Source: Elusimicrobia bacterium HGW-Elusimicrobia-1 (GTDB lineage Bacteria; Elusimicrobiota; Endomicrobiia; PHAN01). From it: DNA of 64,000 nt. The position numbers and the translations under genes are program-made. This document shows, piece by piece, positions 8,907-32,618 of the stretch. The notes beneath the pieces were generated by a model that was given only the letters and a program-made list of their open reading frames with translations, was not told the DNA's origin and ran no database searches. Position 1 is the stretch's first letter. Each line of letters begins with the position of its first letter. Where the stretch lies: assembly GCA_002841695.1 (NCBI GenBank), contig PHAN01000002.1, positions 90,807 through 154,806 of the forward strand. The letters are read 5' to 3'.

Positions 8907-9080
8907 CTTGTCCCCGTAGGCAAAAGGACTTGTCCCCGTAGGCAAAAGGACTTGTCTCCGTAGGCAAAAGGACTTGTCTCCGTAGGCAAAAGGGCTTGTC
9001 CCCGTAGGCAAAAGGGCTTGTCCCCGTAGGCAAAAGGACTTGTCTCCGTAGACAAAAGGGCTTGTCCCCGTAGACAAAAA
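8907..9080. repeat. Tandem repeat, 8 copies of a 22-bp unit (cttgtccccgtaggcaaaagga), ending at the RAYT start codon
   Basis: Eight head-to-tail units with few substitutions, no spacers; first unit overlaps REP-like gtagtgtaggggcttgtcccc. Confidence 0.85.
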
Positions 9081-9538
9081 TGGAACCACCAAAAAAAATC
9101 CGGCTGGAAAAAGAACTATATTCACAACCCGGAAGAATATATTTTGTTACTGTTAATACAAATTTTAAAAAAGGTTTTTTTATAGAGGACAACTTTAATC
9201 GCGAAATTATACAGTGTTTATTGACGGAGAGAAATAACAGATATAGTATTTTCGTATATTGTTTGATGCCTGACCATATTCATTTTTTAATTTCAACAAA
9301 TGCTGAAAATTATTCAATTACTGATTTTGTGAATAGATTTAAAGGATTGACAACAAGAATTGGTTGGAAATACGGTGTTGAAAAAGTTCTATGGCAAAGA
9401 AGATTTTACGATCATATATTAAGAAAGCAAGAAGATGCTAAAAAAATTGCGGAGTATATAGTTAGCAATCCTGTAAGAAAAGGTTTGGTTAAAAATTGGA
9501 AAGAATATCCATATTGTGGGTATATAGATGAATTTTAA
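9080..9538 (+). CDS. REP-associated tyrosine transposase (IS200/IS605 TnpA-like, HUH Y1 family)
   Basis: 152 aa; HUH motif in CLMPDHIHFLIS; conserved C-terminal tyrosine region AEYIVSNPVRKGLV; codon usage AT-rich relative to neighbours. Confidence 0.8.
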   Translation: MEPPKKIRLEKELYSQPGRIYFVTVNTNFKKGFFIEDNFNREIIQCLLTERNNRYSIFVYCLMPDHIHFLISTNAENYSITDFVNRFKGLTTRIGWKYGVEKVLWQRRFYDHILRKQEDAKKIAEYIVSNPVRKGLVKNWKEYPYCGYIDEF

Positions 9539-13254: not shown

Positions 13255-13425
13255 GCAGGGTTTAGAAAGACAGGGTTTAGGGCATAGGGTCTAGGGTTTA
13301 GTAAAATGAATAAAAAACAGAGTATAAAAAAGACAGGGTTTAGGGTTCAGGGTTTAGGGGTTAGGTTTTTTTTCTTTTTTCTTTTTTCTATTTTCTATCC
13401 CCTAACCCATAGACCCTATACCCTG
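13255..13425. repeat. Leader palindrome P3 built from GGGTTTAGGG-type units; contains start codon and signal-peptide coding region of 13306..15414
   Basis: cagggtttagggcatagggtctagggtttag ... cagggtttagggttcagggtttaggggttagg ... ctatcccctaacccatagaccctataccctg; near-identical copy at 22629-22772. Confidence 0.75.
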
Positions 13426-15414
13426 CTTTATGCTACAACCCCCCACACAATTGCTATCGACGGCAACATCGCCGAATGGCGCAAAGACGAGTTGATTTAC
13501 GACGACTCCTGGAACGACTCTCCGTGGGGCGCGCAAAATGAAATCCACCGATTGTACGCCACATGGGACGACTCGGCTTTGTACCTTGGAGTATCGGGCG
13601 TTCAGAAGGACGGCAACAACCTTATCGTCTACATAGACACATCCCCGCTCGACGGAATCGCGGACGCCTCCCTTCTGAAAGATCCGGGTAATCCCTCGGG
13701 GATGTGGTGGTGGCGCAGAGGGAATAAATTCGCCCACGGCTTCAGACCGGATTTTCAGTGGCATCTTTACGAGATGAAACTGGATCCCGCGGATGGCCAC
13801 GGATTTTTCCGGCTCTATCCCGACGATACGACCGCGAATCTCAACGGCTCCGTCGCGCAGAAGGCCTCCGGCGGGGGCGCGGGCAATATCGGTTACGCCG
13901 AGATAAAGATACCGTGGCAGATTTTATTCGGCGCGGCATCTTTCCCGTCGGGAGAGGAAATCAGAATCGCGGCGGCTGTCACGGGCGGTATGGATACGCG
14001 AGGCACGCTCGATTCTTCCGACGATCTTTTCGGCTCGGCGCGCGACACGATACCCGACCAAAAGGCGGTTTTCCCCGAAGTATGGCACGATTCTTCTACG
14101 ATAGACACGTGGCTCGCTCTGAATCTTTCGGGAACCTCCGGCGACCGGTCGCCGGTGCCGCGCTCGCTCGTCTTAACTCCGCAAAGTCCGTTCGATGCGA
14201 AGGTTTCCTGGCAGACGCGCGGGATCATCGAAAGCAATCTCGACGAATACCGGCTGTATTACGCCCAAGACGGAACCGACGGGCGTTACGTCCGCGCGGC
14301 ATCGACGGAGACGTCCGCCGCGATAGAAGGCCTCGTCGCGGGTGCGACCTATCATTTTTTTCTGAGGGCGGTATATTCGGGCGAGGGGGAAGGCGGTTGT
14401 TCTGAAACGTTGGTTTCGCGGCTGCTGCGCCCTTCGCTCGCGCATTCGGCGCAAAGTGTATTTTGCTTTCCCGGTAAAATCCTCGATATTGAAGTCGAAT
14501 CCTCCGCCGCGCCGTCGGCGGTTGCGTTGCGCTATTTGTTTGACTCTGAAAATGTCTGGCGCACGTCGGCGATGAACATCGCCGGATCCAAGGCCTCATA
14601 CGCTCTTTGGCTGCCTTCAATCCCGGCCACACTGAAATATTATTTCGAAATAACGGACTCGGCCGGCACTCATCTTCTGCCCGCCTCGGCGCCGGCCTTC
14701 TCGTATGCCGTAAAGATAGAGTCGCGCGGTTCGGCGTACGCGCCGCTCTCGACGCAAACTTCGACGCTCGATTTCGGGGGAGGAGTCCTGATGGAAATAC
14801 CGCCGGACGGGCTCTCGACCGCGACGACCATCTATTTCGAATATTCATCGTCGAACGGCGATCTTTACGGCGACGGCGGACTCAGAGCGCTCGCGTATTA
14901 CGATTTTTACGCGCTTGATAGAAGCGGCAGCCGCGTCGGAGTGGTTTTCGAAAAGCCCGCGTTGATTAAGCTCAGATATTTCGACGACGACATCGCCGGC
15001 GTATCCGAATATGAGCTTTCCGTCGGGCGCATAGCCGGCGCAAGAAACGTGGCGCTCAAAGGAACGGTTTCCGCGGCCGAAAATAAAATATCTTTCGAGA
15101 CGTCCCATTTTTCCCGCTTTGCGATTTTTTCAGGAGAGACGGCCGTCTCGCCGATTGCCGGGCCGCTTAAAAAAGTCGTGCGGCCCACATTTAATCCGTC
15201 TCTGGGCGAAGTCGTGGAGTTCGACTGCGAGACGCCGTCGAAGATAGAAATATTCGATATGCGCGGTCGCCTAATCCGGACTTTTGACGGGAACTTCTGG
15301 GACGGCCGCGATTCGCTCGGCTCCAAAACTGCGCCCGGCGTATATCTTTATCGTCTCAGTACGCCCGAGCCGGGAAGAAAGAATATTTACGGCAGTTGTG
15401 TGGTAATCAGGTAA
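13306..15414 (+). CDS. Secreted surface protein with N-terminal CBM9/DOMON-like domain and C-terminal FlgD-Ig/T9SS-like domain
   Basis: 702 aa; N-terminal TIAIDGNIAEW...LYATWDDSALYLGVSGV; C-terminus RPTFNPSLGEVVEF...IEIFDMRGRLIRTF...WDGRDSLGSKTAPGVYLYRL...CVVIR. Confidence 0.7.
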   Translation: MNKKQSIKKTGFRVQGLGVRFFFFFLFSIFYPLTHRPYTLLYATTPHTIAIDGNIAEWRKDELIYDDSWNDSPWGAQNEIHRLYATWDDSALYLGVSGVQKDGNNLIVYIDTSPLDGIADASLLKDPGNPSGMWWWRRGNKFAHGFRPDFQWHLYEMKLDPADGHGFFRLYPDDTTANLNGSVAQKASGGGAGNIGYAEIKIPWQILFGAASFPSGEEIRIAAAVTGGMDTRGTLDSSDDLFGSARDTIPDQKAVFPEVWHDSSTIDTWLALNLSGTSGDRSPVPRSLVLTPQSPFDAKVSWQTRGIIESNLDEYRLYYAQDGTDGRYVRAASTETSAAIEGLVAGATYHFFLRAVYSGEGEGGCSETLVSRLLRPSLAHSAQSVFCFPGKILDIEVESSAAPSAVALRYLFDSENVWRTSAMNIAGSKASYALWLPSIPATLKYYFEITDSAGTHLLPASAPAFSYAVKIESRGSAYAPLSTQTSTLDFGGGVLMEIPPDGLSTATTIYFEYSSSNGDLYGDGGLRALAYYDFYALDRSGSRVGVVFEKPALIKLRYFDDDIAGVSEYELSVGRIAGARNVALKGTVSAAENKISFETSHFSRFAIFSGETAVSPIAGPLKKVVRPTFNPSLGEVVEFDCETPSKIEIFDMRGRLIRTFDGNFWDGRDSLGSKTAPGVYLYRLSTPEPGRKNIYGSCVVIR

Positions 15415-15437
15415 CCGTGTGTTAATCGGATAACAAA

Positions 15438-15620
15438 TTGAGTCAATTGAAAAACCCTTATCACGTCATTCCCGCGAAAGCGGGAATCCAGAGTTTCAGT
15501 CGTAGTATGGATTCGTCCCCGAATGTCTTTATCGGGGATAACAACATTCGGGAATGACCCCCGATAAAAACGTTCGAGGGCAGGCATACGGGAAAAAGGT
15601 TGGTTTTTCAATTGACTCAA
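15438..15620. mobile_element. MITE-like element with terminal inverted repeats and nested internal palindrome
   Basis: TIRs ttgagtcaattgaaaaacc / ggtttttcaattgactcaa; internal gtcattcccgcgaaagcgggaatcc ... cgggaatgac. Confidence 0.7.
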
Positions 15621-15660
15621 ATTAAAAGGTGAAAATATTTACGGTGGCTGGCTCGATAAA

Positions 15661-16623
15661 ATGATGATGACGAAACATTCGTTTGCGCGTCTTCGCGCGG
15701 CGGCATTGGCGGCAGCGGTGCTATGTGTTTGCGCCGCGGCGTCGAGATCCTACGAGCCGGGCGCAAACGCGGCTATTTTATCGTCGGCGGGAGGCGGCGC
15801 CGCCGCGATGTCGGCGCATTATGTCTGGCTCAATCCCGCCGCCGCGGCCTTCGCCGCCGACGGATTTGCGTCGAGCGTCGGCTATAAAAAGTTTTTCGCC
15901 GGGGTTGACACTTCCGCCGCAGAAGGAGTGCCGGGATATATCAGGCCGGACATCTCCGAGACGACGCTCGAAGTTCTCTGTCCGTTCGGCGACGGTCTGA
16001 CGGCCGGCGCGGGATTCTATTCGCTCGGGCTCAAGGATTATTTTTCGCGTCAGAACCTGGTTCTTTACGCCGCATATCCGGTCGGGGGCTCGACCTATTC
16101 CTCGCAGGGCGATCATCTGTCGTCGGATGACCGTATCGTCATAGGCGCCGCGCTCAAACAGGTTTCGATTTCTTATGTCGCGGACGAATATACCTCCGAT
16201 TTTTTCTCCGTGTACTCAGGGCGTAAAAGCGCGCTGACTCTGGACGTCGGGGCGATATATACCGCCGGTCGTCTGCGATTGGGAGTCGTCGGGCGCAATC
16301 TCATTCCAGCGAATCTCGGCATCTATGAAAACGCGCCTGAGGATGTCTCCTTCCTCATCGGCGCGGCGGCGGTCTTCCGGCCATACGAGTTGCGGCTCGA
16401 CTTCGCCGCATCAGGATACAAGGGTTTCACCGAAGCGATACCTTCGGTCGAGATAAAAGCCGGCGCGGCGGATTTTCGTCTGGGCGTCAATTCGTCGCAG
16501 GCGGCCGCCGGCGCGACCCTGCGTTCCGGCGATATTGCCCTGACGGCGGCTTTCATATATCCCTACGTGATATCCGGCGGCTTCGGCGATTTCGCGGCCG
16601 AGTTTTCTTACAGGATAAAATAA
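15661..16623 (+). CDS. Outer-membrane beta-barrel-like protein (divergent member of the same partner family)
   Basis: Signal peptide MMMTKHSFARLRAAALAAAVLCVCAAA; motif MSAHYVWLNPAAAAFAADG; stop overlaps start of next gene. Confidence 0.5.
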   Translation: MMMTKHSFARLRAAALAAAVLCVCAAASRSYEPGANAAILSSAGGGAAAMSAHYVWLNPAAAAFAADGFASSVGYKKFFAGVDTSAAEGVPGYIRPDISETTLEVLCPFGDGLTAGAGFYSLGLKDYFSRQNLVLYAAYPVGGSTYSSQGDHLSSDDRIVIGAALKQVSISYVADEYTSDFFSVYSGRKSALTLDVGAIYTAGRLRLGVVGRNLIPANLGIYENAPEDVSFLIGAAAVFRPYELRLDFAASGYKGFTEAIPSVEIKAGAADFRLGVNSSQAAAGATLRSGDIALTAAFIYPYVISGGFGDFAAEFSYRIK

Positions 16624-18014
16624 TGACAATTTCGGCGAAGGACAAAACCCCGCACACCTTTCTCTTCGGCGCGGAACTCGCCGCCCAGACGGCGGTGTTG
16701 CTGTGGATCGCTCTGGCGCTCGCAGTAGTTTTCGTTTCTCTAAGGGCGCCGCAGCACATAATTCTTGTGTATCCGGCTTCCGTCCTCGTAATTTTTTTGA
16801 GTCACATTTTTTCGGGAACGTCCGTCGCGGCGTCATTGCTGGCTTTTTTTACCATAATCTCTCTCGTCGGCGCGATAGCCGCTTCATCGGTGACGAACAG
16901 GGCGACTTTCATCTCGTCTCTGGCGCTCTCATGGGCGGTGTTTTTCGCGGCGCTGAAATACGCGGCTATAATGGATTCCCGTCGGGCGGCATTCGCGGAA
17001 AAATCGGAAGAGTTTGAGATAGCTCTTAACGAGACGCGGCGGTTTGCGGCGGAGCATTCAGAGACCGCCGCTGCCTGTGAACGCAGGATAGAAAACTATT
17101 CTAAAATGGCCGCGTTTCTGCGCGCGGTGTGCGGCCTTCTTGACGCGGAGGATTTTTTTGCGGCATTGAGCGGCAGGTTCGCCGGCTATCTCGGCGAAGG
17201 CGCGATGCTTTCCTTCCGCTCCGCTCCGCCGGATTTTGTGGCGGCCGCCGGCGGAAGCGCGGGCGCGTTCCATGCGACCGGAGCATTTTTCGTCTCCGCC
17301 GATTCGAGGCGCATAGCCGCGACTTTTCTCGACGAAGTCCCCGGGCGCGAATGGGTTTTGGTCGAAAAAACTTCCCGGGCTCTGACCGACGACGATAAGC
17401 GTTTTCTTTCTTTGGCTCTTGATTTTTCAAGGACGGCGGCGGCAAATGCGATGCTTTACGAAAAAACTCAGAAACTATCCATACTCGATGAACTCACGGG
17501 AGCGTATCTGAGGGGTTACCTTATGGAGCGCTTTGATGAGGAATTTACGCTCGCGCGCGGACACGGCGCTCCCCTTTCGGCGCTTATGTTCGACATCGAT
17601 CATTTCAAGAGCATTAACGACGAACACGGACACACCGTCGGAGATGAAGTGCTAAAAGCCATTGCTCATTCGCTCAGGAGGCGACTGCGCGAGACCGACA
17701 TCCTCGGAAGATACGGGGGGGAAGAGTTTGTCGCCGTAATGCCGCATACGGACTGCGCCGCCGCCCTGGCCGTCGCCCAAGAAGTCCGATCGATGATAGA
17801 ACACGAAAGATTCTTCGCCGGACCGGCGTCCGCGGCTCTCCGTGTGACGGTAAGCGTGGGCGCGGCTTCGATGGAATCGTCCGACGAATCCTGGCAACAA
17901 ATTCTCTCTCGCGCCGACAAGATGCTTTATGCGGCCAAAATATCCGGTCGAAATCGCGTGATGCCGTCGCCGGATAGCGGATCGGGAGCAAAACCCGGCC
18001 CTGATAAAAATTAA
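16623..18014 (+). CDS. Membrane-anchored GGDEF diguanylate cyclase
   Basis: N-terminal hydrophobic segments; GGDEF domain LTGAYLRGYL...FDIDHFKSINDEHGHTVGDEVL...RYGGEEFVAV. Confidence 0.85.
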   Translation: MTISAKDKTPHTFLFGAELAAQTAVLLWIALALAVVFVSLRAPQHIILVYPASVLVIFLSHIFSGTSVAASLLAFFTIISLVGAIAASSVTNRATFISSLALSWAVFFAALKYAAIMDSRRAAFAEKSEEFEIALNETRRFAAEHSETAAACERRIENYSKMAAFLRAVCGLLDAEDFFAALSGRFAGYLGEGAMLSFRSAPPDFVAAAGGSAGAFHATGAFFVSADSRRIAATFLDEVPGREWVLVEKTSRALTDDDKRFLSLALDFSRTAAANAMLYEKTQKLSILDELTGAYLRGYLMERFDEEFTLARGHGAPLSALMFDIDHFKSINDEHGHTVGDEVLKAIAHSLRRRLRETDILGRYGGEEFVAVMPHTDCAAALAVAQEVRSMIEHERFFAGPASAALRVTVSVGAASMESSDESWQQILSRADKMLYAAKISGRNRVMPSPDSGSGAKPGPDKN

Positions 18015-18018
18015 GGAT

Positions 18019-19296
18019 ATGAACTTTATCGGATACGTCTACCCTCACATCGGTTACTTCCTGTCGGCGGCTTTTCTGTGGTCACTGACGATGACAGCCG
18101 CCAAACCCCGGGCGATTGCGGCGGCTGTCTCGACCGCAGCGGTTCTGATATGGGTGTTTCCGATACTGTGGCCGACAATCGGGATGGAGTCGCGCGCGAT
18201 CGTCGGGCCGCTTACATTTTTTGCGATATCGGCGATATTCGCCTCGGATTTCTATAAATCACTCGGCCGCGCGGCGAGGGGTTGCGCCGCGAAAATAGAT
18301 GAGATGGGATGCCGGCTCGCCGTCGAAAAAGAGCGACTCGCCGCCGCGACTGCCGGGGCTATTAAGCTTCAGCGAGATCTCGACAAAACGACCGCCGACT
18401 TCGTCGCGGCTAAAGAAACGCTCTCGCAAATGAATAAAGAGGAACTCTGCGAAAATATAACCCGCCTCGTTTCATCGGTCGAGGGAGTGTCGGGCGTCCG
18501 TGTTTTCGACCACAAGGGATCGTGCCTTTCCGCCTTTCCTCGCCTTCCGTCGGAAAGCCACTCGGCCGACGTGCGTGTCTTTTTTGAGAACGGTCCAATG
18601 CCGTCGAACGGAAATTATTTTTTCGGCGCGATATCGGACGGGAACAGGCGGCTCGGCGCGATATTGGCGGAGTTTGTGTCGGCCCCTGCGAGCGACCGCC
18701 TTAGCGCCGTTGAAAATCTATTTTCCGTATTTGCTCTCGGCTATCGCCGCGCGGCGCTCTTTGAAGAGTACGAATCGAAATCGCGCCACGACGCGCTCAC
18801 CGGACTTTTTAACCGGCGTTATTTTTTTCGGAAACTCGACATCGAGATTAAGCGAGCGCACAGATACGGAAGCGGTTTCGCTCTGCTTATGCTCGACGCG
18901 GATAACTTCAAAAAAGTCAACGACACTTACGGACATCCGGCCGGCGATGCGGTGCTCGTCAAAATATCGTCCGTGCTTGCGGCGTTTGAATATCCGGGCG
19001 CTTTCGTCGGAAGGTACGGCGGCGAGGAGTTTGTCGTCTGCCTGCCTTACTGCGATTCCTCAACGGCGCTCGAACAAGCCGAACGCGTGCGACGTTCGAT
19101 AGAGGCCGCGGATTTTTCGGATAATCTTCGGGGAATGATACAATTCCACGTAACGGCGAGCGTCGGCGCGGCCGTATATCCGGATTCAGGCGTTACGGGA
19201 GCGGCTCTATGCGCCGCCGCCGATAATGCTCTCTACGCGGCTAAAGAAAGCGGCAGAAACCGCTCGGTACTCTCAAGTCGCCCGTCCGCGCCATAA
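18019..19296 (+). CDS. Membrane-anchored GGDEF diguanylate cyclase
   Basis: LTGLFNRRYF...MLDADNFKKVNDTYGHPAGDAVL...RYGGEEFVVCLP; N-terminal TM segments. Confidence 0.85.
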   Translation: MNFIGYVYPHIGYFLSAAFLWSLTMTAAKPRAIAAAVSTAAVLIWVFPILWPTIGMESRAIVGPLTFFAISAIFASDFYKSLGRAARGCAAKIDEMGCRLAVEKERLAAATAGAIKLQRDLDKTTADFVAAKETLSQMNKEELCENITRLVSSVEGVSGVRVFDHKGSCLSAFPRLPSESHSADVRVFFENGPMPSNGNYFFGAISDGNRRLGAILAEFVSAPASDRLSAVENLFSVFALGYRRAALFEEYESKSRHDALTGLFNRRYFFRKLDIEIKRAHRYGSGFALLMLDADNFKKVNDTYGHPAGDAVLVKISSVLAAFEYPGAFVGRYGGEEFVVCLPYCDSSTALEQAERVRRSIEAADFSDNLRGMIQFHVTASVGAAVYPDSGVTGAALCAAADNALYAAKESGRNRSVLSSRPSAP

Positions 19297-19325
19297 GCGG
19301 CAAGAATGACTTAACGGAGGAAATT

Positions 19326-20267
19326 ATGCTGGAAAAACTCGTTTCAAGGATGACCCCGAAATGGCGCGACACGACGGTGGCTCTCGTTTTTCTTTCGCCG
19401 TTTCTGGCCGTTTACGCCGTTTTTCTCGTCTATCCGATTTTTTACTCGATGTATCTGAGTTTCAGGACGGTGAGCGTCGATACCGACATGTTCAACGTTT
19501 TTTCAGATATGAGATTTACCGGCCTGAAAAACTATATTGAACTTGCGAAAGATTATCACTTCTGGTGGTCGCTCGCCGTAACTTTTTACTACGCTATCCT
19601 CTATATACCGCTTCTGATTTTCTCCTCGCTCGTTCTGGCAGTGCTTCTTAACAATCATCTCAAAGGGCACTCGTTTTTCCGCAGCGCCTATTTCATGCCG
19701 AATGTCCTGGATATGTTTGTCGTCGGAACCATATGGATGTTCCTCTACGCCCCGCAGGGAGGCGTCATCTCGCAGATTATGAACGCTCTCGGCATAGATT
19801 TTTTTTCGCGCGAGGGAATACTCGGCAGCCCCCGCACCGCAATGCTCGGAGTCGTCGTGGCTTTGGTTCTCAAAAACACCGGTTTCGGAATGATTCTTTT
19901 TCTTGCGGCGATACAAAACATATCACGCTCGGTCTACGAAGCCGCCGACATCGACGGAGCCAGTAACTGGCAGAAGTTCACGAAAATCACGATACCTCTC
20001 GTGAGACCCATAATCCTTTTTATGGTTGTGACGGGTATGATAGGAGCGCTCAACTCCTTCACCGAAATTTACGCGATGACTTCCGGCAAGCCCAACGTCG
20101 TCGTTTTCGGTAAGACGATGGAGGCGACGCGCGTGGCGGGATATTATCTTTTCCGTCAGTGGGACAGGATGAATTACGGTTACGCCGCCGCCATGAGCTA
20201 CGCCCTTCTTTTTATTACGCTGGCGGTCTCTTACGTCAACGCGAAGATTCTTAAGTCGTCGCATTAG
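19326..20267 (+). CDS. ABC sugar transporter permease (MalF/UgpA-like)
   Basis: SD ACGGAGG; multi-TM; EAA-loop-type motif YEAADIDGASNWQKFTKITIPLVRP. Confidence 0.85.
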   Translation: MLEKLVSRMTPKWRDTTVALVFLSPFLAVYAVFLVYPIFYSMYLSFRTVSVDTDMFNVFSDMRFTGLKNYIELAKDYHFWWSLAVTFYYAILYIPLLIFSSLVLAVLLNNHLKGHSFFRSAYFMPNVLDMFVVGTIWMFLYAPQGGVISQIMNALGIDFFSREGILGSPRTAMLGVVVALVLKNTGFGMILFLAAIQNISRSVYEAADIDGASNWQKFTKITIPLVRPIILFMVVTGMIGALNSFTEIYAMTSGKPNVVVFGKTMEATRVAGYYLFRQWDRMNYGYAAAMSYALLFITLAVSYVNAKILKSSH

Positions 20268-20274
20268 AAAAAGG

Positions 20275-20332
20275 ATGTAGCGGTGGGATTGCCATCCCAC
20301 AAATTCGGCGAATAGCAATTCGCCCGCTACAT
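20275..20332. repeat. Palindromic intergenic element P6 (TGTAGCGG...CCGCTACA enclosing two hairpins)
   Basis: gatgtagcggtgggattgccatcccac...ggcgaatagcaattcgcccgctacat; related copies at 21196-21253 and 39231-39288. Confidence 0.7.
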
Positions 20333-20352
20333 TATTTCAACGGAGGAAAAAA

Positions 20353-21195
20353 ATGACATTGATAACAAAAACGCCGGAACTGGCAAAAAAAACATTTCTC
20401 TACGTCGCGCTGGCCGTAGGCGCGGTCTTCGTGCTTTTCCCGTTTTTCTGGATGATACTCGTTGCGCTGAAACCCGACGAACAGGTTTTCGCGCTGAATT
20501 TTATCCTGCAAAAACCGCTTCTTAAAAATTTCGTCGACATCTGGACGAATCCCTCGTATCCTTTCGGAAGATTCTTCGTCAACAGTTTGATAGTGGCGAC
20601 GAGCGGCGGTTTTTTCACGGCGCTGTTCTGCTCGCTGGGCGGTTACGTTTTCGCGAAGAAAGATTTTTATTTCAAAGAGCAGATATTCTGGATTCTTCTG
20701 GCTACGATGATGATACCGGGGATGATGTTTTTGGTGCCGCAGTTCGCCATCGTCACGAAACTCGGGTGGATAAACACCTACTCGGGAATGGTTGTTCCGC
20801 ATCTGGCCAATGTCTTCGGGATATTCCTGATGAGGCAGTACATGGAGACGATTCCGACGAGCATCATAGAATCCGCCAAGATAGACGGCGCGGGCGAATG
20901 GCAGATATTCTGGCGGCTGATAGTGCCGCTTTCCATGACAATAATAACGATGGTTTTTCTTTTGAGCTTTCTTTTTCACTGGTCGAACTTTCTCTGGCAT
21001 CTCGTCGTAAACACGCCCGAGTCGGACAAACTTACTCTGCCCATAGGCCTCGCGCTTTTTAAGGGGCAGTACACCTCCGACTGGGCAAAGATGATGGCGG
21101 CGTCGTGTTTCAGTATAATCCCGATAGCGTTGATATTCGTTGTCGCCCAGAAGTTTTTTATCGAGGGACTGACGTCGGGAGCCGTAAAAGAGTAA
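20353..21195 (+). CDS. ABC sugar transporter permease (MalG/UgpE-like)
   Basis: SD ACGGAGG; multi-TM; EAA motif IESAKIDGAGEWQIFWRLIVPLS. Confidence 0.85.
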   Translation: MTLITKTPELAKKTFLYVALAVGAVFVLFPFFWMILVALKPDEQVFALNFILQKPLLKNFVDIWTNPSYPFGRFFVNSLIVATSGGFFTALFCSLGGYVFAKKDFYFKEQIFWILLATMMIPGMMFLVPQFAIVTKLGWINTYSGMVVPHLANVFGIFLMRQYMETIPTSIIESAKIDGAGEWQIFWRLIVPLSMTIITMVFLLSFLFHWSNFLWHLVVNTPESDKLTLPIGLALFKGQYTSDWAKMMAASCFSIIPIALIFVVAQKFFIEGLTSGAVKE

Positions 21196-21253
21196 ATGTA
21201 GCGCGAGGATTTATCCTCGCTAATAAAAAAGCGAACTTAAAAGTTCGCGCTAC
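21196..21253. repeat. Palindromic intergenic element P6-related
   Basis: atgtagcgcgaggatttatcctcgc...gcgaacttaaaagttcgcgctaca. Confidence 0.6.
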
Positions 21254-21277
21254 AAATCGTAAAAGACCGGAGGGAAA

Positions 21278-22627
21278 ATGAAAAAAATAAGATTAATGCG
21301 ACCGTTAGGGCGAATAGCAATCCCTCGTTTCACTCGGGACAAGTTTCGCCTGCTACTTGTTTCCTTACTTTTTGCTGTCTTTGTCGGTGGTTGCGTCCGG
21401 AAGGCAAAAGAGCCGATTGCCGATGGCGTCAAATTTCTCACCATCTGGCAGACGTACAATAACGAGGAACACGATGTGTTTCTCAAGGTCGTCTCCGAAT
21501 ACGAAAAGAATAATCAGGGCGTGAAGATAAAAGTTCAGCGCATACCGTGGGATCAGCACGTCACGAAAATAAAAGTAGCGATGATAACGCATACGGTGCC
21601 CGACATCGCGCGGGTTGACCCTGCTTTCCTGCCGCGGCTCGTGAGGTCGCGCTCGGTCATCGACTTGAGTGATTACGGCGCGGACAGAATCATCGGAGAT
21701 CTCGTACCCGCTGCGGCGCAGGCGAACGTCTTCCCCGAGTCGTTCTTCGTCCACGGCTCGACGTCGTCGCGCAAAAGGATATTCGGCCTTCCCGATCAGA
21801 CGACCGGCGTGGCGCTTTTTTATAACAAAAAACTCTTCGCCGATGCCGGGTTCGCGCGCGGGCCTGCGACGTGGGAAGAATTCGTCAAATACGCCAAAGC
21901 CCTCACGCGCGACCTCGACGGCGACGGTCGCGCCGACCAGTTCGGCTTTGCGGCGGACCTTTCGCTGTGGTTCACATTTCCGTTTTTTAACACATACGGT
22001 GTGAAATTCATCAGCGACGACGGAAAAACCTGTCTGCTGGACTCTTTGGCGGCGCGCGAGGCGCTTCAACTTAAAGTGGATCTCTACGCCAGGCACAAGG
22101 TCGAGGCGGGCGCCTGGCAGGCGGGCGCGATAAGCCCCGACACCGGATTCATTAACCGCAAATACGCGATGATATTTACCGGCCCGTGGAACCTCAAAAG
22201 ATTCAAGGACGCGGGCATTCCGTTCGGCGTTTCGCTGATACCGCGCGGACCCGCCGGTTCGTCGACAAACGTCGGCGGATCGAGTATGGTGGTATTCAGA
22301 ACATCCCGCCATCCCGACGAAGCGTATAAGTTTCTCATGTATCTTGTCTCGCCGGCGACGCAGAAAAAGTGGGCGGAGGCGCTGAGTCAGATTCCCGTCA
22401 ATATCAAGGCATATCCGATGGTGAACGTTTCCGCGCTGCCGGAACTGAAAATATTCATGGAGCAGATGAAGACGGCCGTGCCGCGCCCGAAGGTTCTCGA
22501 CTATGACGAACTCGAAAGCATAATGAATGCCGAGATGTACACCGCGCTTTCGGGACAGAAAACCGTCGAGCGGTCGCTCAAGGACGCCGTCGAGGAAATC
22601 AACAAGAGGGTGTTGAATCTGGAATAA
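21278..22627 (+). CDS. Extracellular solute-binding lipoprotein of sugar ABC transporter (family 1, MalE-like)
   Basis: SD CCGGAGGG; lipobox-like LLFAVFVGGC; 449 aa, typical size and composition of SBP_bac_1. Confidence 0.75.
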   Translation: MKKIRLMRPLGRIAIPRFTRDKFRLLLVSLLFAVFVGGCVRKAKEPIADGVKFLTIWQTYNNEEHDVFLKVVSEYEKNNQGVKIKVQRIPWDQHVTKIKVAMITHTVPDIARVDPAFLPRLVRSRSVIDLSDYGADRIIGDLVPAAAQANVFPESFFVHGSTSSRKRIFGLPDQTTGVALFYNKKLFADAGFARGPATWEEFVKYAKALTRDLDGDGRADQFGFAADLSLWFTFPFFNTYGVKFISDDGKTCLLDSLAAREALQLKVDLYARHKVEAGAWQAGAISPDTGFINRKYAMIFTGPWNLKRFKDAGIPFGVSLIPRGPAGSSTNVGGSSMVVFRTSRHPDEAYKFLMYLVSPATQKKWAEALSQIPVNIKAYPMVNVSALPELKIFMEQMKTAVPRPKVLDYDELESIMNAEMYTALSGQKTVERSLKDAVEEINKRVLNLE

Positions 22628-23876: not shown

Positions 23877-24752
23877 TTGCCGAACTGTGAACTTTTAACT
23901 ATGGACTTTTTCTCTCTTTTCTCGTCGGTGCAGAAATTCCCTGTCTTTGTCTGTGCCGCAATATTCCTCGTTTTATGCCCGACGGACGCGCTGGCCGCTT
24001 TCATCCGTTTCCCGTCCTCAGCGAGGGTGTTGTCGCTGGGCGGCGCCTCGGCGGCGCTTGCCGACGACGCATCGGCCGTGCGCTCCAATCCCGCGGGGAT
24101 GGTTCAATCGGATGGAATCGCTCTCGCCTGCGGCTACGCCGATATCTATGCCGCCGATGGATTGTACCGCGCCGAGACGGCTGCGGTTTATGCGCGCGGC
24201 GCCTCGGCGTGGGGCATCTCGTGGGAGAAACTCGGACTTCAGGGGACTTATGACGAGGACGTCGCGGCTATCGCCTTCGCAAGGCAAATCTCCGACAGTA
24301 CGAGCGTCGGGGCGGCGGTTTCTTCTTACAAAAGTGAAGTCAAGAATTTTACGACGCCGTTTTATAAAGGCCCACGCTCGGCCGCGGGCTTCGCCCTCGG
24401 CGTTTTATGGCAGATTTCCGACGACATACTTGCCGCCGCCGTCGCCGACAACATCAACGAACCGCAGCTTGCCGACGGCGAAAAACTAGCTCAATCGGCG
24501 CGGCTGGGCTTAAGATACCATCCATTTGCGAGCGGTCTTGTAACAGCGGAACACGAAACGGCCGGCAATGTTTTGCGCTGCGGATTTGAGGTCGTCATCG
24601 GCGGAATGCTGCCGGTGCGCGTCGGCGTCGAGCGTGGCCGCCCGACCTTCGGATTCGGCATAGAAACAGGTTTTATCTCGATTGATTTCGCCCTGCTTTC
24701 CGACCATAATCTGGGTCAACTCTACCAGACGGGTGTCAGGATGAAATTATGA
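23877..24752 (+). CDS. Beta-barrel outer-membrane protein, PorV/PorQ- or PorP/SprF-like (start may be ATG 23901)
   Basis: Motif SLGGASAALADDASAVRSNPAGMV near N-terminus, same family signature as 12258..13250. Confidence 0.6.
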   Translation: MPNCELLTMDFFSLFSSVQKFPVFVCAAIFLVLCPTDALAAFIRFPSSARVLSLGGASAALADDASAVRSNPAGMVQSDGIALACGYADIYAADGLYRAETAAVYARGASAWGISWEKLGLQGTYDEDVAAIAFARQISDSTSVGAAVSSYKSEVKNFTTPFYKGPRSAAGFALGVLWQISDDILAAAVADNINEPQLADGEKLAQSARLGLRYHPFASGLVTAEHETAGNVLRCGFEVVIGGMLPVRVGVERGRPTFGFGIETGFISIDFALLSDHNLGQLYQTGVRMKL

Positions 24753-26314
24753 AAAAACCGCTTGCGCGCCTCATTCTGGCGGTTATGGCGCTCGGCTTTG
24801 TCGATGCCGCGGCTTGGGCTTCGTCTGTCGGAATCGGCGGTTATTACGAAACCGAATTTTCTTGGCGTAAGGAATCGGATTTCGAATGGAATCTCGCCTC
24901 GCCAAAGCATTACCTGCAGACAAAGTTTTGGGCGAATCCGCGACAAGGTGTGGAAGTATATTCGCAGTTTTCGGCGCGCACGAACGAAAGTTGGAACGAA
25001 AAATATTTTTTCGAACTTGAGCGCGGGTGGGGAAAATGGCGGTTTGGTTCGGGCGAGACATTTTTTCTGCTTAAAGAAGAAAGACACTGGATCGACTCGC
25101 CGCTCTTACGAATATCCGAACAATCGAAGGCCTCATACTTCAACGACGGCTCCGGCGCGCGGATCAACTTTTTCGGCGCGGGGACACCCTTGAGGGCAAG
25201 CGTTGTTTTAACAAAGTCCCTGCCTAAAGCGCGGCAGGAGTGGTACGGCTCTTATTTTGACGAAAACGCGCATAATTTCGTCGCACGCCTTGGCGCGGAT
25301 TTCAGGACACCTATCGAGGCGCTCGACAGAATATCCGTCGGAGGATCTTATCTGAATTCGGCGCTGATACAGCAAAAGTACGATTCCGCCGGCAATTTTC
25401 TCAATGAGCACGCGATGATAAACGACGTCATTTCGCTCGACGCCAAACTTTCGGTTTTCGACGCGACATTGACGGGCGAATGGTCGGGTTCCCAAAAAAA
25501 AGGATCGGCGAACGACCCGCTTCCGTCGGAAAATCAGACGGCGTTCGCCGCCGAGTTGCGCGACTTAAACTTAAGGCCGCTGCGCCTGCAAACGCGTTTC
25601 TACGACTATGGGCCGGGCTATCGTTCGGAGCTGTCGCGCGCCTTCGGGCGGCTCTCCCGCGACGGAAACGACGCCGACAAAGAGTTCGGCCGCCGGGGAT
25701 ATTACTTTGAAACCGGCTATCTGTGGCCGAAAAAAATGATAACCTTCACGTACAAACGAAAATATAGAATGTCTGACTTCGATTACCTGACCAACAATCA
25801 GAATATCCGCGAGGATTATATTATTTACCGGGCCACAGAGACGTATACCGGTTCCTACGACGCTATCGAATCGCGGATAGATTTCGCCAACGGCATAAAA
25901 AACATCTCCGCCGTCGAGCTTTCCGGCGATAGACAAGGATCGTGGCCGGGGTTTCTCTTTGAAATTTCGGGCGATACGCGCGATGTTTATTCGCGCGTCC
26001 AGTTCAGGGTAAAGGACGCCGGCTCCGAAACGGGTCTTGGCGAAAGACACATCATCGGCGCCGAAGTCAGATACAACCTTTCCGATCATCTGCAGCTTTA
26101 TGCGCGCACGGTCTCGGTGAACGCGGCTAAACGCGGCAGAAACTGGTCGAGCGCTTTCTATCAACTTAGATATTTTATGGGATGGGACATCGAGGGTTAT
26201 GTTGAATACGGCGACGGCTGGCACACCGATTCGCTGTCGCACGACTCCGACATAACCGATTACGATCGCTCGCTCGTCGACGTGGTCAGGATACTTTTCA
26301 AGATTAACTTTTGA
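24749..26314 (+). CDS. Outer-membrane beta-barrel protein (unknown family; candidate glycan channel)
   Basis: ATGA start/stop overlap with upstream gene; signal peptide MKKPLARLILAVMALGFVDAAAWA; C-terminal ...RILFKINF. Confidence 0.55.
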   Translation: MKKPLARLILAVMALGFVDAAAWASSVGIGGYYETEFSWRKESDFEWNLASPKHYLQTKFWANPRQGVEVYSQFSARTNESWNEKYFFELERGWGKWRFGSGETFFLLKEERHWIDSPLLRISEQSKASYFNDGSGARINFFGAGTPLRASVVLTKSLPKARQEWYGSYFDENAHNFVARLGADFRTPIEALDRISVGGSYLNSALIQQKYDSAGNFLNEHAMINDVISLDAKLSVFDATLTGEWSGSQKKGSANDPLPSENQTAFAAELRDLNLRPLRLQTRFYDYGPGYRSELSRAFGRLSRDGNDADKEFGRRGYYFETGYLWPKKMITFTYKRKYRMSDFDYLTNNQNIREDYIIYRATETYTGSYDAIESRIDFANGIKNISAVELSGDRQGSWPGFLFEISGDTRDVYSRVQFRVKDAGSETGLGERHIIGAEVRYNLSDHLQLYARTVSVNAAKRGRNWSSAFYQLRYFMGWDIEGYVEYGDGWHTDSLSHDSDITDYDRSLVDVVRILFKINF

Positions 26315-26338: not shown

Positions 26339-28363
26339 ATGAAAAAGAAAAAAAATATCGCGTTCGCGAACAAGAATCATATGATCATCGCCTCGGCGGT
26401 TTTTGTAGCGCTTCTTGCGGTTTCTTCCGCCGCCGGTCCTTTGGCGCCGAAAGCCGTTCAGGGCGGCGTGGAATTCGCTTACGAAGCCGCCCGCGACGCC
26501 AAAAAGATTGCCGTGGCCGGTGAGTTTAATTCATGGAACCATGAAAAAAAATTTCTAAAGTACGACCCCGTCCGCGGACTCTGGACGACGGTTGTTGAGC
26601 TTGGCGAGGGAAGACACGAATATAAATTTGTCGTCGACGGAACGTGGCAGGAGGGCGCCAATCTCGTCGCCGAAGTGAAAAAGAAAGACGGACGGCTTGT
26701 TGTTGAGGAGCCCGCCTCCGCGCCCAATACGCCCTACTCGGCAAAGATAAATTTCTCGGGCAAGTTCGTCGCCGAACTCGGAGCGCAGTCCCGCCAACAG
26801 CGGGACGACTTCTCTTCCATGCCGCCCGTCAATCACGCGGACTTCGACTGGAATATAACCGCCTCGAAAGACGCCTCGGGCTTCGCGCGGCTTGAATATG
26901 ACGGCGACAAAACCTCGGGCAAACTCCTATTTAAACAGGGCCGGATAAGTTTCGCGCCGACGGGTTTCGAGACGTCGATGTATTACAAGCAGAAAGCGAT
27001 TCAGTTCGACGACCCTCTGCGCGCGACAGACAGGGCCGTGACGCTGAAATACGACGCCGTCGAGTTCTTCGATGAAACCAATCCGCATAAGGCGTTCGGT
27101 CTCTGGGAGCAGGCCGTCGCCGTAAAAACGGATTTTCTCGGCGGGGCCTTTTCCGCGTTTTATTCGGACATGCTCCGTCCGGCGACGTACTTTCACACTC
27201 TTGAAGACAACAGCGGACTTCGTTATGCGCGGAGTTTCAAATCCATCCCGTTGAAAATCGCTTTTACGACGAGGCGCACTCGCGGCGGATGGTGGCCGTG
27301 GGCGAACAGCGACAACAACTGGTTTCCCGATCCCGAAAAGCCGAACGGCTACTCATGGGACGCCGCGGCCAGAGGAAGCGTTGCGACCTGGTATAACGGA
27401 TATCTCAACGAAGATTTCATAGGCGTTGACGGAAAATTCGACTTTCTGCCCGGTGTCGCCCTGTTCGGTGAAACGGCGTCGGTAAAGAAAGAATTGAAAT
27501 CGCAAAAGATATCGGGGGGCAGCGCGCACGAAAAGACGTGGACCATCGAAAACGGCGCCGAGAGTATTTACGGCGTAAAATACTCGCGCGGAAAGATACT
27601 CTCGCTTCAGGCCTCGGCGTCAAGCCGGAACACAACTTTCACCCCGCCGCTTTATGCGGGCGAAACCTTCGCCGCCACCGGCTCCGGTTTTTCTTTGGCC
27701 GCGCGTCTGCGCGCCGGATCTTTCACTTTAGCGGCGGCGGGCTCGTCGCGAAAAAACTCGCGGATAGAAAAAATACTCCCGCTCGACATACATCCCTACG
27801 CGCGGCCTCTCGTCTATCAAGGTCTATTTCCGATGGAAGCCGCGTCCGTCGGATTTCTCGTCCATGCCGTCGAAGAGGAAAATGCCGTTATAAGCGCCGC
27901 GGAATATTCCGCTCCCGCGTTTTCCGTCGGAGCGAAAAGCAGAATATCTTCGCTTAAACTCTTGCCGCGATCCTACGCCGGCGGAATCTGGAATGTCAAT
28001 CCGTTCATCGCCGCGCCCGACGAAATCACGCTTTCCGAGTCGGCGCTCGATGCCGCCGTCAAAATTTGGCCGGATATTACGGTCGAGTCCGCGCTCAGAT
28101 TGTTCGCGTGGGACGATAAAAACGAAGGCGGCTTGAAAGCATACTCGGCGCTTTTTCTGGCGCTCAAATACGACTTCTCGAAAAATTCATACGTGCGGCT
28201 CGGTTGGGGGCTCGACCCCGAGGACACCGACGACGATATTCTCGCGGGATTTGACGCGCGGGAAAGCTTTTTATATAATCTGCGCGAAGCGTCGATTCTT
28301 GAAGCCGCGCGGACGCTTGAGTCGCTTCGGAGAATTTCCGTGCGTATGTTCGTGAGATTTTAA
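26339..28363 (+). CDS. Fusion of N-terminal CBM48 (AMPK-beta glycogen-binding type) domain to a predicted outer-membrane beta-barrel
   Basis: SD ACGGAG; signal peptide; CBM48 motif KKIAVAGEFNSWNHE...GRHEYKFVVDGTWQEGANLVA; 500-aa C-terminal region ending ...RMFVRF. Confidence 0.6.
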   Translation: MKKKKNIAFANKNHMIIASAVFVALLAVSSAAGPLAPKAVQGGVEFAYEAARDAKKIAVAGEFNSWNHEKKFLKYDPVRGLWTTVVELGEGRHEYKFVVDGTWQEGANLVAEVKKKDGRLVVEEPASAPNTPYSAKINFSGKFVAELGAQSRQQRDDFSSMPPVNHADFDWNITASKDASGFARLEYDGDKTSGKLLFKQGRISFAPTGFETSMYYKQKAIQFDDPLRATDRAVTLKYDAVEFFDETNPHKAFGLWEQAVAVKTDFLGGAFSAFYSDMLRPATYFHTLEDNSGLRYARSFKSIPLKIAFTTRRTRGGWWPWANSDNNWFPDPEKPNGYSWDAAARGSVATWYNGYLNEDFIGVDGKFDFLPGVALFGETASVKKELKSQKISGGSAHEKTWTIENGAESIYGVKYSRGKILSLQASASSRNTTFTPPLYAGETFAATGSGFSLAARLRAGSFTLAAAGSSRKNSRIEKILPLDIHPYARPLVYQGLFPMEAASVGFLVHAVEEENAVISAAEYSAPAFSVGAKSRISSLKLLPRSYAGGIWNVNPFIAAPDEITLSESALDAAVKIWPDITVESALRLFAWDDKNEGGLKAYSALFLALKYDFSKNSYVRLGWGLDPEDTDDDILAGFDARESFLYNLREASILEAARTLESLRRISVRMFVRF

Positions 28364-28842: not shown

Positions 28843-29859
28843 ATGAAACGCAGATTTGTGGTTGCGCTGGTTTGCGCTCTGACGGCGGCATTCGCCGTTT
28901 CTTCAGCCGGAGCGAAACTGAGGAAAGTCGGTTCGGCCGAGAGCGGCAAATCCGTCGAATGCGCTACGCGCGTTACCGGCGCGGGCGTCGAGTTCGTTTA
29001 CGAAAACCCCTCGGCGAAAAACGTCTTCGTGGCCGGTTCTTTCAACGACTGGAACTCTTCGCGCGACGCTCTTTCGAAAGATAAAAAGGGTGTTTGGCGC
29101 GCGACGCTGCCGTTGAAAACGGGAACGCATCAGTACAAGTTCGTCGTCGACGGCAACTGGATGGCAGATCCTTCCAATCCTCAAACCTCCGACGACGGCT
29201 TAGGCGGGAAAAACTCGGCTGTGGAAATAAAATCTGCGGCAGATGGAAAACCCGCCCCCGCAACCGCGGCGCCCGGCGCAGGCGGGCCGAAAGTTACGGG
29301 CGAGGGCGTTAGATTTGTCTATAAAAACCCCGCGGCGAAAAACGTCTTCGCGGCGGGCGAGTTCAACGCATGGAACGCGCAGGCCGATCCGCTCATAAGG
29401 CAGAAAGACGGAACGTGGCTGCTCGTCAAGAAAATCCCCCCCGGAAGATACAATTATAAGTTCATCGTCGACGGACAGTGGCTCAATGATCCCGTCAATA
29501 CCGCAACCTCCGACGACGGTTACGGCGGAAAGAACTCGGTTCTGGAAGTAGTCGCAGCCGCCGCGCCGTCGCACAAACTGTCGGCCGCGACGAGACAGAC
29601 CAAGACGGGGATAGAGTTCGTTTACGAAAATGCATCCGCCAAAAGCGTCGCAGTTGCGGGCAGTTTCAATAACTGGAGCGCCTCGTCGCACCGTCTCGAA
29701 AAGGATAAGTCGGGCATCTGGAAGACATCGGTTCCTCTGGGTAAAGGCAAATATCAGTATAAGTTTGTCGTCGACGGCGAATGGAAAGAGGATCCGTCGA
29801 ACTCCCAAAACTCCGAAGACGGCCTCGGCGGGAAAAACTCAGTCATCGAGGTTCGCTGA
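28843..29859 (+). CDS. Secreted protein consisting of three tandem CBM48-like glycogen/starch-binding domains
   Basis: Three internal repeats of VEFVYENPSAKNVFVAGSFNDWN...HQYKFVVDGNWMADPSNPQTSDDGLGGKNSAVEI (second and third copies at ~aa 150 and ~aa 250). Confidence 0.75.
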   Translation: MKRRFVVALVCALTAAFAVSSAGAKLRKVGSAESGKSVECATRVTGAGVEFVYENPSAKNVFVAGSFNDWNSSRDALSKDKKGVWRATLPLKTGTHQYKFVVDGNWMADPSNPQTSDDGLGGKNSAVEIKSAADGKPAPATAAPGAGGPKVTGEGVRFVYKNPAAKNVFAAGEFNAWNAQADPLIRQKDGTWLLVKKIPPGRYNYKFIVDGQWLNDPVNTATSDDGYGGKNSVLEVVAAAAPSHKLSAATRQTKTGIEFVYENASAKSVAVAGSFNNWSASSHRLEKDKSGIWKTSVPLGKGKYQYKFVVDGEWKEDPSNSQNSEDGLGGKNSVIEVR

Positions 29860-29901
29860 TATAAAAGAAGGGAGAAGTTTAAGAAGTAAGAGGCAAGAAG
29901 T

Positions 29902-32470: not shown

Positions 32471-32487
32471 GTGTGTGCCCTTATAAC

Positions 32488-32618
32488 GAGACCGTTGAAA
32501 AAGTATTTTTTACTATTTTGTCATTCCCGAACGTTTTAATCGGGAATCCATTACTGACGGAAACTCTGGATTCCCGCTTTCGCGGGAATGACATAATTAA
32601 GGGTTTTTCAACAATCTC
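32488..32618. mobile_element. MITE-like element, same TIR family, with internal gtcattcccg...cgggaatgac palindrome
   Basis: gagaccgttgaaaaag ... tgtcattcccgaacg...cgcgggaatgacat ... tttttcaacaatctc. Confidence 0.65.

Follow-up and report, generated by a model that had tools for sequence, protein, structure and literature searches.

The DNA analysed here, hereafter the window, is a 64-kb stretch of contig PHAN01000002.1 from an uncultured Elusimicrobia bacterium, and it is an alpha-glucan (starch/glycogen) utilisation locus with a same-strand, tightly packed gene row at its centre. In that row, the gene for a predicted outer-membrane beta-barrel is followed by the genes for two GGDEF diguanylate cyclases (DGC1 and DGC2), predicted to synthesise cyclic di-GMP (c-di-GMP), and then by the genes for two ATP-binding cassette (ABC) permeases and a solute-binding protein; a secreted surface protein with an fn3 domain is encoded immediately upstream (Table 1). 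Features were taken from a map of open reading frames (ORFs), direct reading of the sequence, and Pfam and NCBIfam scans. Since uncultured relatives show the same arrangement, a link between starch feeding and c-di-GMP signalling is probable in these organisms.

Table 1. Features of the window, numbered from its first nucleotide. CTD, C-terminal domain; MITE, miniature inverted-repeat transposable element.
Feature	Position	Strand	Details
Giant protein	5-6298		>2,000 aa; alpha-amylase domain, fn3, CarboxypepD_reg
Tandem repeat	8907-9079		22-bp unit CTTGTCCCCGTAGGCAAAAGGA, 7.9 copies
IS200-like Y1 transposase gene	9080-9538		152 aa; PF01797 E=6.6e-11
CTD-type cargo/barrel pair	9528-13250		gene starts 9528/12258
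CTD-type cargo/barrel pair	13306-16623		gene starts 13306/15661
fn3 surface protein	13306-15414	+	702 aa, secreted; fn3 E=7.9e-8
MITE-like insertion	15435-15623		189 nt; 22-nt terminal inverted repeats, 95% complementary, arms 145 nt apart
Barrel gene	15661-16623	+	320 aa; signal peptide-like segment by hydropathy; ends ...AAA TAA
DGC1 (GGDEF gene 1)	16623-18014	+	463 aa; GGDEF E=1.5e-40
DGC2 (GGDEF gene 2)	18019-19296	+	425 aa; GGDEF E=7.4e-46
ABC permease 1	19326-20267	+	313 aa; BPD_transp_1
ABC permease 2	20353-21195	+	BPD_transp_1
Solute-binding protein	21278-22627	+	SBP_bac_1 E=4.2e-42
CTD-type cargo/barrel pair	22651-24752		gene starts 22651/23877
Protein with no Pfam match	24749-26314		521 aa; signal-peptide-like N-terminus; C-terminus ...KINF
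CBM48/AMPK1_CBM protein	26339-28363		674 aa; CBM48; signal-peptide-like N-terminus; C-terminus ...FVRF
CBM48/AMPK1_CBM protein	28843-29859
Related MITE-like copies	29901-30034; 30095-30253; 32483-32623
GH31 enzyme	30302-32470	-
GH13 enzyme	32645-35083	-
MalK-type ATPase	35289-36392		OB_MalK E=1.2e-14; OB/TOBE regulatory domain
GH13 enzyme	36495-38960
Regulator	39322-39924		MerR-HTH and receiver domain
CTD-type cargo/barrel pair	53078-58074		gene starts 53078/56269
HAMP histidine kinase	59014-60459
Possible small response regulator ORF	60354-60824

The stop codon of the barrel gene (TAA, 16621-16623) and the ATG of DGC1 (16623-16625) overlap by 1 nt (TAATG), so that the two genes share the ATAATGA at 16620-16626, as the initial annotation had read it. 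It had also placed the second GGDEF gene 5 bp on, ahead of the permeases, and this too agrees with our reading: the ATG of DGC2 begins at the fifth base past the DGC1 stop, after the 4-nt spacer GGAT, and permease 1 starts 29 nt past the DGC2 stop, preceded by a GGAGG motif. In the window, as in the relatives L008 and L007 introduced below, an AGGA Shine-Dalgarno-like motif lies 4-8 nt upstream of the DGC1 start, within the final barrel codons for Y-R-I-K (TAC AGG ATA AAA). The sole such motif at the window's DGC2 start, AAGGA, stands 1 nt upstream, too near for a normal Shine-Dalgarno site, and would fit termination-reinitiation. No terminator was found at the gene junctions in a pattern scan. 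The translational coupling proposed at first thus fits a same-strand row with overlapping or near-abutting codons. Stop/start overlaps of 1 or 4 nt are common in bacterial operons and unremarkable alone; the feature that exceeds chance here is the conservation of the arrangement, not the overlap itself.

Relatives were found from the DGC1 side, where full-length relatives are very few, and from the barrel side, with a search blind to the cyclases. The DGC1 of the window is 100% identical to a protein of Elusimicrobia bacterium HGW-Elusimicrobia-1; it is 86% identical in L008, a relative labelled Endomicrobiia, 46% in L007 and 40% in L005, and the barrel-side search contributed three more homologues at 35-41% identity. 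The order fn3/CTD protein, barrel, DGC1, DGC2, permease, permease, binding protein is also found in L005, L008, L009 and L010 (35-86% identity), and the match to L005 spans the entire ~20 kb compared. L007 has the same order up to the point inside the second permease where its contig stops, L011 breaks off within DGC1, and L015, the seventh lineage, shows the fn3 protein, the barrel and DGC1. Every barrel homologue on a contig that is long enough is followed by two GGDEF genes and then an ABC permease (L009 and L010 run on through the binding protein), and the linkage is kept in seven lineages. The spacing from barrel to DGC1 is -1 nt in the window and in L005, -4 nt in L007, 0 nt in L008, -8 nt in L010, +30 nt in L015 and +77 nt in L009, and that from DGC1 to DGC2 ranges from -14 to +20 nt. 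A split DGC2 in L010 might have been taken for a pseudogene; this was ruled out, the split being a run of N at a scaffold gap. A scan of GTDB genomes with the barrel alignment returned a single locus, L012, which is the same contig as L009, and a scan of metagenomes with the fn3 alignment returned one 4.3-kb contig; neither scan yielded a version of the locus without cyclases, the fn3 contig ending short of the cyclase position. The most divergent copy of the locus (L009/L012, contig JBGFRZ010000077.1) has an unchanged gene order and belongs to a metagenome-assembled genome labelled 'Ignavibacteria bacterium', at odds with the Elusimicrobia/Endomicrobiia labels of the window and its close relatives; either the ~20-kb locus was transferred horizontally, or the contig was wrongly binned, or the labels are inconsistent.

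Against L008, the barrel, DGC1 and DGC2 show ratios of nonsynonymous to synonymous substitution rates (dN/dS) of 0.26, 0.31 and 0.30, respectively, compared with 0.04 and 0.02 for the permeases; the first three are therefore genes under purifying selection, yet fast-evolving. That the cyclase genes are passengers, an old insertion never lost and with no functional tie to starch use, is very improbable. GGDEF genes are indeed numerous and occur in many contexts, the barrel and both cyclases evolve about ten times faster than the permeases at nonsynonymous sites, and one remote DGC1 relative (P0130, described below) sits in another context, after ExbB-ExbD. However, the seven lineages keep the order and the tight spacing even where protein identity has fallen to 35-46%, the catalytic motifs are all intact with dN/dS well below 1, and, bar the weak match to P0130, the examined relatives of the DGC1 sensor all lie in this locus.

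The PF00990 GGDEF model scores 139.1 bits for DGC1 and 156.3 bits for DGC2 (cutoff 23.8), and TIGR00254 scores 175.3 and 156.4 bits, respectively (cutoff 37.4). Both proteins read G-R-Y-G-G-E-E-F, with GGEEF encoded at 17715-17729 in DGC1 and 19018-19032 in DGC2. DGC1 carries the motifs DIDHFKSINDEHGHTVGD and ADKMLYAAKISGRN in addition to RETD and RYGGEEF; the metal- and GTP-binding motifs are DIDHFKSINDEHGHTVGD in DGC1 and DADNFKKVNDTYGHPAGD in DGC2, accompanied by LYAAKISGRN and LYAAKESGRN, respectively. The signatures DxDxFK..ND..GHxxGD, GGEEF and AKxxG[RK]N are kept in DGC1 and DGC2 of all six lineages that have both genes, and both enzymes look catalytically competent for c-di-GMP synthesis, as predicted from these motifs. 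The cyclase profile also aligns end to end with active cyclases of solved structure, namely Leptospira DgcR (PDB 6zxm, E down to 4e-51) and PleD (1w25, 6e-47). The guanine-specifying position, which we take to correspond to PleD D344 and GacA S348, is an Asp in both proteins and in all orthologues (GHTVGD, GHPAGD). Assignment to the Hypr GGDEF enzymes, which make cyclic GMP-AMP and have Ser or Thr in place of this Asp of GHxxGD (PMC6456294), was therefore rejected.

The two cyclases differ at the I-site (RxxD), the site of product inhibition, which the initial annotation had singled out for inspection: it is present in DGC1 as RETD (residues 356-359, nt 17688-17699, five residues before GGEEF) and absent from DGC2, which has YPGA at that place and hence no I-site. 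The split is conserved. Every DGC1 orthologue has RxxD (RETD, except RDVD in L009) next to an invariant GGEEF, and DGC2 has Y[PA]Gx in all six lineages. DGC1 accordingly resembles the I-site cyclases PleD, WspR and DgcR in its GGEEF, its metal- and GTP-binding residues and the placement of its RxxD, which is in register with the RKSD I-site of DgcR (6zxm). Unlike those enzymes, DGC1 has no receiver domain in its input half, which consists instead of transmembrane (TM) helices, a long helix and a divergent GAF domain, and DGC2 lacks the I-site.

The multi-TM N-termini first described for both cyclases, alongside the intact RYGGEEF, are borne out by a hydropathy scan, which detects several hydrophobic helices near each N-terminus, within ~120 residues of the start in DGC1 and within ~80 in DGC2. 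The loops between these helices are at most ~12 residues long, and both proteins are predicted to be anchored in the inner membrane without a periplasmic sensor domain. No known sensor domain was matched in the N-terminal halves by Pfam (to E<=10) or NCBIfam, orthologues included, and the middle regions of DGC1 and DGC2 matched no Pfam model, the GAF models PF01590 and PF13185 included, at E<=10. An exhaustive phmmer search with residues 1-280 of DGC1 against 1.84 billion protein representatives returned five relatives, three of them below 1e-30. The most remote of the five (E=4.3e-4), the metagenomic protein P0130, starts to match DGC1 in the TM region and runs collinear with it through to the end (residues 40-447; hhalign probability 100; 27-32% identical) and contains a recognisable GAF domain (E=6.6e-12) that aligns to DGC1 residues ~166-282; by this indirect, transitive homology, that region of DGC1 is a divergent GAF. 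The best description of DGC1 is thus ~4 TM helices joined by short loops, followed by a long helix, a divergent GAF and an I-site-bearing GGDEF domain; DGC2 begins with hydrophobic helices (two to four, judged visually and from the hydropathy scan) and continues with a coiled coil, a small domain and a GGDEF domain that lacks the I-site.

P0130 shares with DGC1 motifs in the TM region, the coil and the GAF C-terminal helix as well as RETD-GGEEF; it differs in that its GAF is recognisable and its gene follows ExbB-ExbD, whereas the GAF of DGC1 has diverged too far for Pfam and its gene lies in a starch locus. Bar P0130, all detectable relatives of the DGC1 sensor for which gene context was examined lie in the starch locus. 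The P0130 gene (locus L014, contig Ga0180301_10041906, positions 648-3062) begins 1 nt after the ExbD gene in an ExbB-ExbD-cyclase row, and P0130 is another TM-GAF-GGDEF cyclase packed against envelope transport genes.

DGC1 and DGC2 are 36% identical to each other, but this similarity is confined to their C-terminal ~240 residues, and the N-terminal halves are not detectably related; since profile comparison aligns only the C-terminal ~220 columns, a recent tandem duplication was rejected. GGDEF enzymes must dimerise to join two GTP molecules, and Bce-type intramembrane-sensing kinases, which likewise have no periplasmic domain, use a transporter as their sensor. It is conceivable, though in our estimation distinctly unlikely, that DGC1 and DGC2 form an obligate heterodimer in which DGC1 alone supplies the I-site, produced 1:1 by coupled translation and possibly using the ABC permeases as a co-sensor of flux. 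Such a dimer would fit the invariant tandem order and the I-site split of all lineages, the close DGC1-DGC2 spacing, the badly spaced Shine-Dalgarno-like motif at the window's DGC2 (as for reinitiation), the shared plan of TM helices, long helix, small domain and GGDEF, the 11-nt overlap of DGC2 with the permease gene in L007 and the missing periplasmic domains. Against it, the N-terminal halves show no detectable mutual homology, either protein, its active site being complete, could work as a homodimer, and tandem paralogous signalling genes are common. The conserved combination of one cyclase with an I-site and one without makes this a natural system in which to ask whether membrane GGDEF enzymes work as heterodimers.

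The barrel gene product models as a signal-peptide-bearing outer-membrane beta-barrel of the FadL/PorV class, with a predicted FadL-like 14-stranded fold; in comparisons, the values are PorV 21.7, BamG 21.2, FadL 21.0, TodX 20.3, OmpG 19.6 and CymA 18.3. Its sole Pfam match is a marginal one to TraF_2 (26.5 bits, cutoff 25), it has no NCBIfam match and so falls below the PorV/PorQ/PorP-SprF family threshold, and a search of its profile against PDB sequences returned nothing. A 35% homologue, P0126, has a precomputed match to PF11751 (PorP_SprF), and the barrel encoded nearby at 12258 scores above the cutoff of the PorV/PorQ family (PorV_fam, 149.5 bits against 90). Recent paralogy of the barrel with the other two small barrels of the window was rejected, as profile comparison gave no significant similarity.

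The adjacent fn3 protein approaches the Por_Secre_tail model at its C-terminus (residues 636-686; 21.8 bits, just below the cutoff of 23), where the sequence ...GVYLYRL...IYGSCVVIR is invariant in six orthologues. It is one of four cargo proteins in the window that match FlgD_ig, CHU_C or Por_Secre_tail models, all end in '...GVY...[VI]V[VIA]R' and are each encoded next to a barrel (Table 1). In bacteria with a type IX secretion system (T9SS), PorP/SprF-like barrels bind and anchor type B CTD proteins encoded alongside, as in PG1035-PorP and SprB-SprF (PMC9143113). The window resembles those pairs in that a CTD surface protein gene is directly followed by a FadL/PorV-class barrel gene, four times over; it departs from them in that no known Por pair has cyclases coupled downstream and in that the host carries an Elusimicrobia label, outside the phyla with an established T9SS. 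No T9SS core gene (SprA/Sov, PorK/L/M/N) was found within the window. Taken together, these pairs suggest a cargo-specific anchoring or sorting system in an Elusimicrobia-labelled lineage in which T9SS is not established. The initial annotation had called the outer-membrane protein gene a partner gene, which is a reasonable reading insofar as a CTD cargo adjoins the barrel; the partner, however, is the upstream fn3 protein, which is probably the barrel's cargo.

Alternatively, and compatibly with its fold taken alone, the barrel could be a maltodextrin channel that feeds the binding protein, in the manner of LamB or CymA, and not a surface-protein partner, so that 15661-22627 would be a plain uptake operon with two signalling genes. 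We regard this as somewhat unlikely, while giving it more weight than any other alternative considered here. It is opposed by the four CTD cargo/barrel pairs in the window, one of them with a barrel above the PorV/PorQ threshold, by the PorP_SprF match of the barrel homologue, by the overlap or near-abutment of the fn3 and barrel genes in L010 (-4 nt) and L009 (+9 nt), and by the anchoring of adjacently encoded type B CTD proteins by PorP-like barrels in T9SS bacteria (PMC9143113).

Most of the 246-nt spacer between the fn3 and barrel genes is filled by a recent MITE-like insertion, which is absent from the 86%-identical relative L008 and, as RNA, folds at -74.7 kcal/mol (z = -5.4 against shuffles). 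The family to which it belongs (~120-190 nt, intergenic only) has the terminal inverted repeats TTGAGTCAATTGAAAAACC / TGAGACCGTTGAAAAA and the inner hairpin GTCATTCCCGCGAAAGCGGGAATCC, and related copies occur elsewhere in the window (Table 1). The right arm of the element is overlapped by a sigma-70-like site (15612-15639), and the insertion might provide a separate start of transcription for the block of barrel, cyclase and importer genes. An exact 11-nt direct repeat, AATATTTACGG, flanks the MITE-containing spacer at 15382-15392 and 15634-15644. The copy at 15382-15392 codes for the residues N-I-Y-G, conserved in the C-terminus of the fn3 protein, and the other lies 17 nt before the barrel ATG; as neither copy adjoins the inverted repeats, the pair is not a simple target-site duplication.

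The importer genes downstream of the cyclases (two BPD_transp_1 permeases and a family-1 binding protein), together with the MalK-type ATPase encoded further on, have the composition of a maltose/maltodextrin-type ABC importer, and its presumed maltodextrin-type substrate is deduced solely from the neighbouring amylase, CBM48 and GH31 genes. On balance, we consider it probable that a conserved cyclase pair is co-expressed with the starch locus and that c-di-GMP reports alpha-glucan feeding to effectors elsewhere. Co-transcription with the importer would mean that the cell makes the cyclase pair only while the starch-feeding apparatus is expressed. The pair would probably be inserted in the membrane beside the transporter, with its activity tuned from the cytoplasmic side, through the GAF-like domain, or within the membrane; the output of DGC1 would be self-limiting through its I-site and that of DGC2 non-limited. 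The c-di-GMP produced would then report 'feeding on alpha-glucan' to effectors encoded outside the window, whose outputs might be, for example, adhesion to or retention on the substrate or, by analogy with GlgX in Streptomyces, glucan enzymes.

Several points weigh against this explanation. The co-transcription of barrel, DGC1 and DGC2 with the maltodextrin-type importer, and the coupling of their translation, are suggested by the spacing of the genes only, and the barrel-DGC1 overlap is not universal, being replaced by spacers of 77 nt in L009 and 30 nt in L015. The known lineages number only about seven, all of them metagenomic. The MITE-like hairpin and the promoter-like site may cut the barrel unit off from the upstream fn3 gene. 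The GAF assignment of DGC1 comes from one remote homologue, with low alignment confidence at residues ~195-250, and an AlphaFold model of DGC1 built from five sequences (predicted local distance difference test score 54.9, predicted template modelling score 0.31) is too poor to be read beyond secondary structure. Finally, the 64-kb window shows no sign of a c-di-GMP effector, a phosphodiesterase or a riboswitch.

Gene order alone does not give the direction of control. The initial annotation had proposed c-di-GMP control of both surface display and glucan use, a claim that our results do not uphold: an Rfam scan of the whole window, covering c-di-GMP riboswitches and other RNAs, matched no family, so no c-di-GMP riboswitch lies there, and the cyclases have no periplasmic domain with which to contact the barrel. 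PilZ and other effectors, to which the same annotation had drawn attention, were likewise not found in the window: no PilZ or other known c-di-GMP-binding domain occurs in the window proteins scanned, and no PilZ protein was evident by inspection among the small unannotated ORFs, which were not scanned with hidden Markov models. Moreover, operon membership points to the reverse dependency, with cyclase production following expression of the glucan locus, and not to c-di-GMP control of the locus.

We therefore consider it unlikely, though with some points in its favour, that c-di-GMP acts back on the locus, either on the export or anchoring of CTD proteins through their barrel partners or on the activity of the ABC importer (e.g., through the MalK regulatory domain). 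In every lineage the cyclases have a cargo/barrel pair directly on one side and the importer genes on the other, their membrane anchoring would permit a local c-di-GMP pool, a MalK with an OB/TOBE regulatory domain is encoded in the window, and an alpha-glucan enzyme directly regulated by c-di-GMP is known (PMC9530166). Opposed to this are the lack of a known c-di-GMP-binding domain in the locus proteins scanned and of a riboswitch in the window, the lack of any periplasmic part of the cyclases able to reach the outer membrane, and the silence of gene order on the direction of control. In addition, most locus products have hydrophobic, signal-peptide-like N-termini and so are probably exported beyond the reach of a cytoplasmic nucleotide. 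More speculative still, and in our judgement improbable, is a combined scheme in which an obligate DGC1-DGC2 heterodimer docked on the MalFG-type permease reads transport flux, or a cytoplasmic glucan-derived ligand, via degenerate GAFs, and in which local c-di-GMP gates the export or anchoring of CTD proteins on PorV/PorP-like barrels. If true, starch uptake and surface display would be joined in a feed-forward loop driven by the substrate; to our knowledge, neither c-di-GMP signalling nor T9SS-like sorting has been studied in the phylum Elusimicrobia.

The explanation that we prefer, namely co-expression of the cyclase pair with the starch locus and reporting to effectors elsewhere, has partial counterparts in known systems. 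YfiB, a lipoprotein resembling OmpA/Pal, targets the periplasmic domain of YfiN by way of a periplasmic repressor, YfiR. The YfiBNR system (TpbB; PMC3375315) resembles the present row in that the genes for an outer-membrane protein and a membrane diguanylate cyclase share one operon; here, in contrast, the outer-membrane protein is a beta-barrel, no YfiR-like gene lies between, and the cyclases have no periplasmic domain. A YfiBNR-type relay was rejected on this last ground, given inter-helix loops of at most ~12 residues. In Actinoplanes sp. SE50/110, the amlR-amlE-ACSP50_2473 operon includes a gene for a GGDEF-EAL protein, and its authors concluded that maltose metabolism is coupled to c-di-GMP (PMC6828939). 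The likeness lies in a c-di-GMP-metabolising gene that is co-operonic with maltose/alpha-glucan catabolic genes; the aml operon differs in that a single GGDEF-EAL protein of an actinobacterium is encoded beside a cytoplasmic maltase and a LacI repressor, with no outer membrane, transporter adjacency or paired cyclases, and in that it is conserved in only some relatives. Streptomyces GlgX, a glycogen debranching enzyme activated by c-di-GMP (PMC9530166), demonstrates that this nucleotide can directly control alpha-glucan breakdown, although GlgX is an effector and not a cyclase, and belongs to another phylum. In Fibrobacter, c-di-GMP has been measured in cellulose- and glucose-grown cells for comparison (PMC6851124).

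In the literature that could be searched, we found no description of this arrangement and no cyclases reported from a polysaccharide locus of Elusimicrobia. Its components are ordinary; what is new is the conserved module, together with the DGC1 sensor domain, and the arrangement is real, conserved and undescribed. Discussions of c-di-GMP usually treat it as a global switch from motile to attached life and back, and the specificity of individual cyclases is an open question. A dedicated cyclase pair that is an integral part of a polysaccharide-feeding locus, and whose sensor module has hardly any relatives elsewhere, offers a clean and testable example of a second messenger whose synthesis is tied to one particular apparatus for nutrient harvesting, in an uncultured lineage for which we know of no experimental signalling data. 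If only the co-expression holds, the result is still a useful annotation, that of a type of starch locus with its own c-di-GMP source.

Other features of the window merit mention. Three signalling genes near the locus, for the MerR-receiver regulator, the HAMP histidine kinase and the possible small response regulator, are candidate transcriptional controllers of the starch locus. The IS200-like Y1 transposase gene, which has the tandem repeat CTTGTCCCCGTAGGCAAAAGGA directly upstream, is absent from the same position in the orthologous loci L005, L007 and L009 and so looks like an insertion into a conserved locus. Lastly, the 521-aa protein and the 674-aa CBM48 protein each end in an aromatic residue, as is typical of outer-membrane barrel proteins, and the locus may therefore encode further outer-membrane components.

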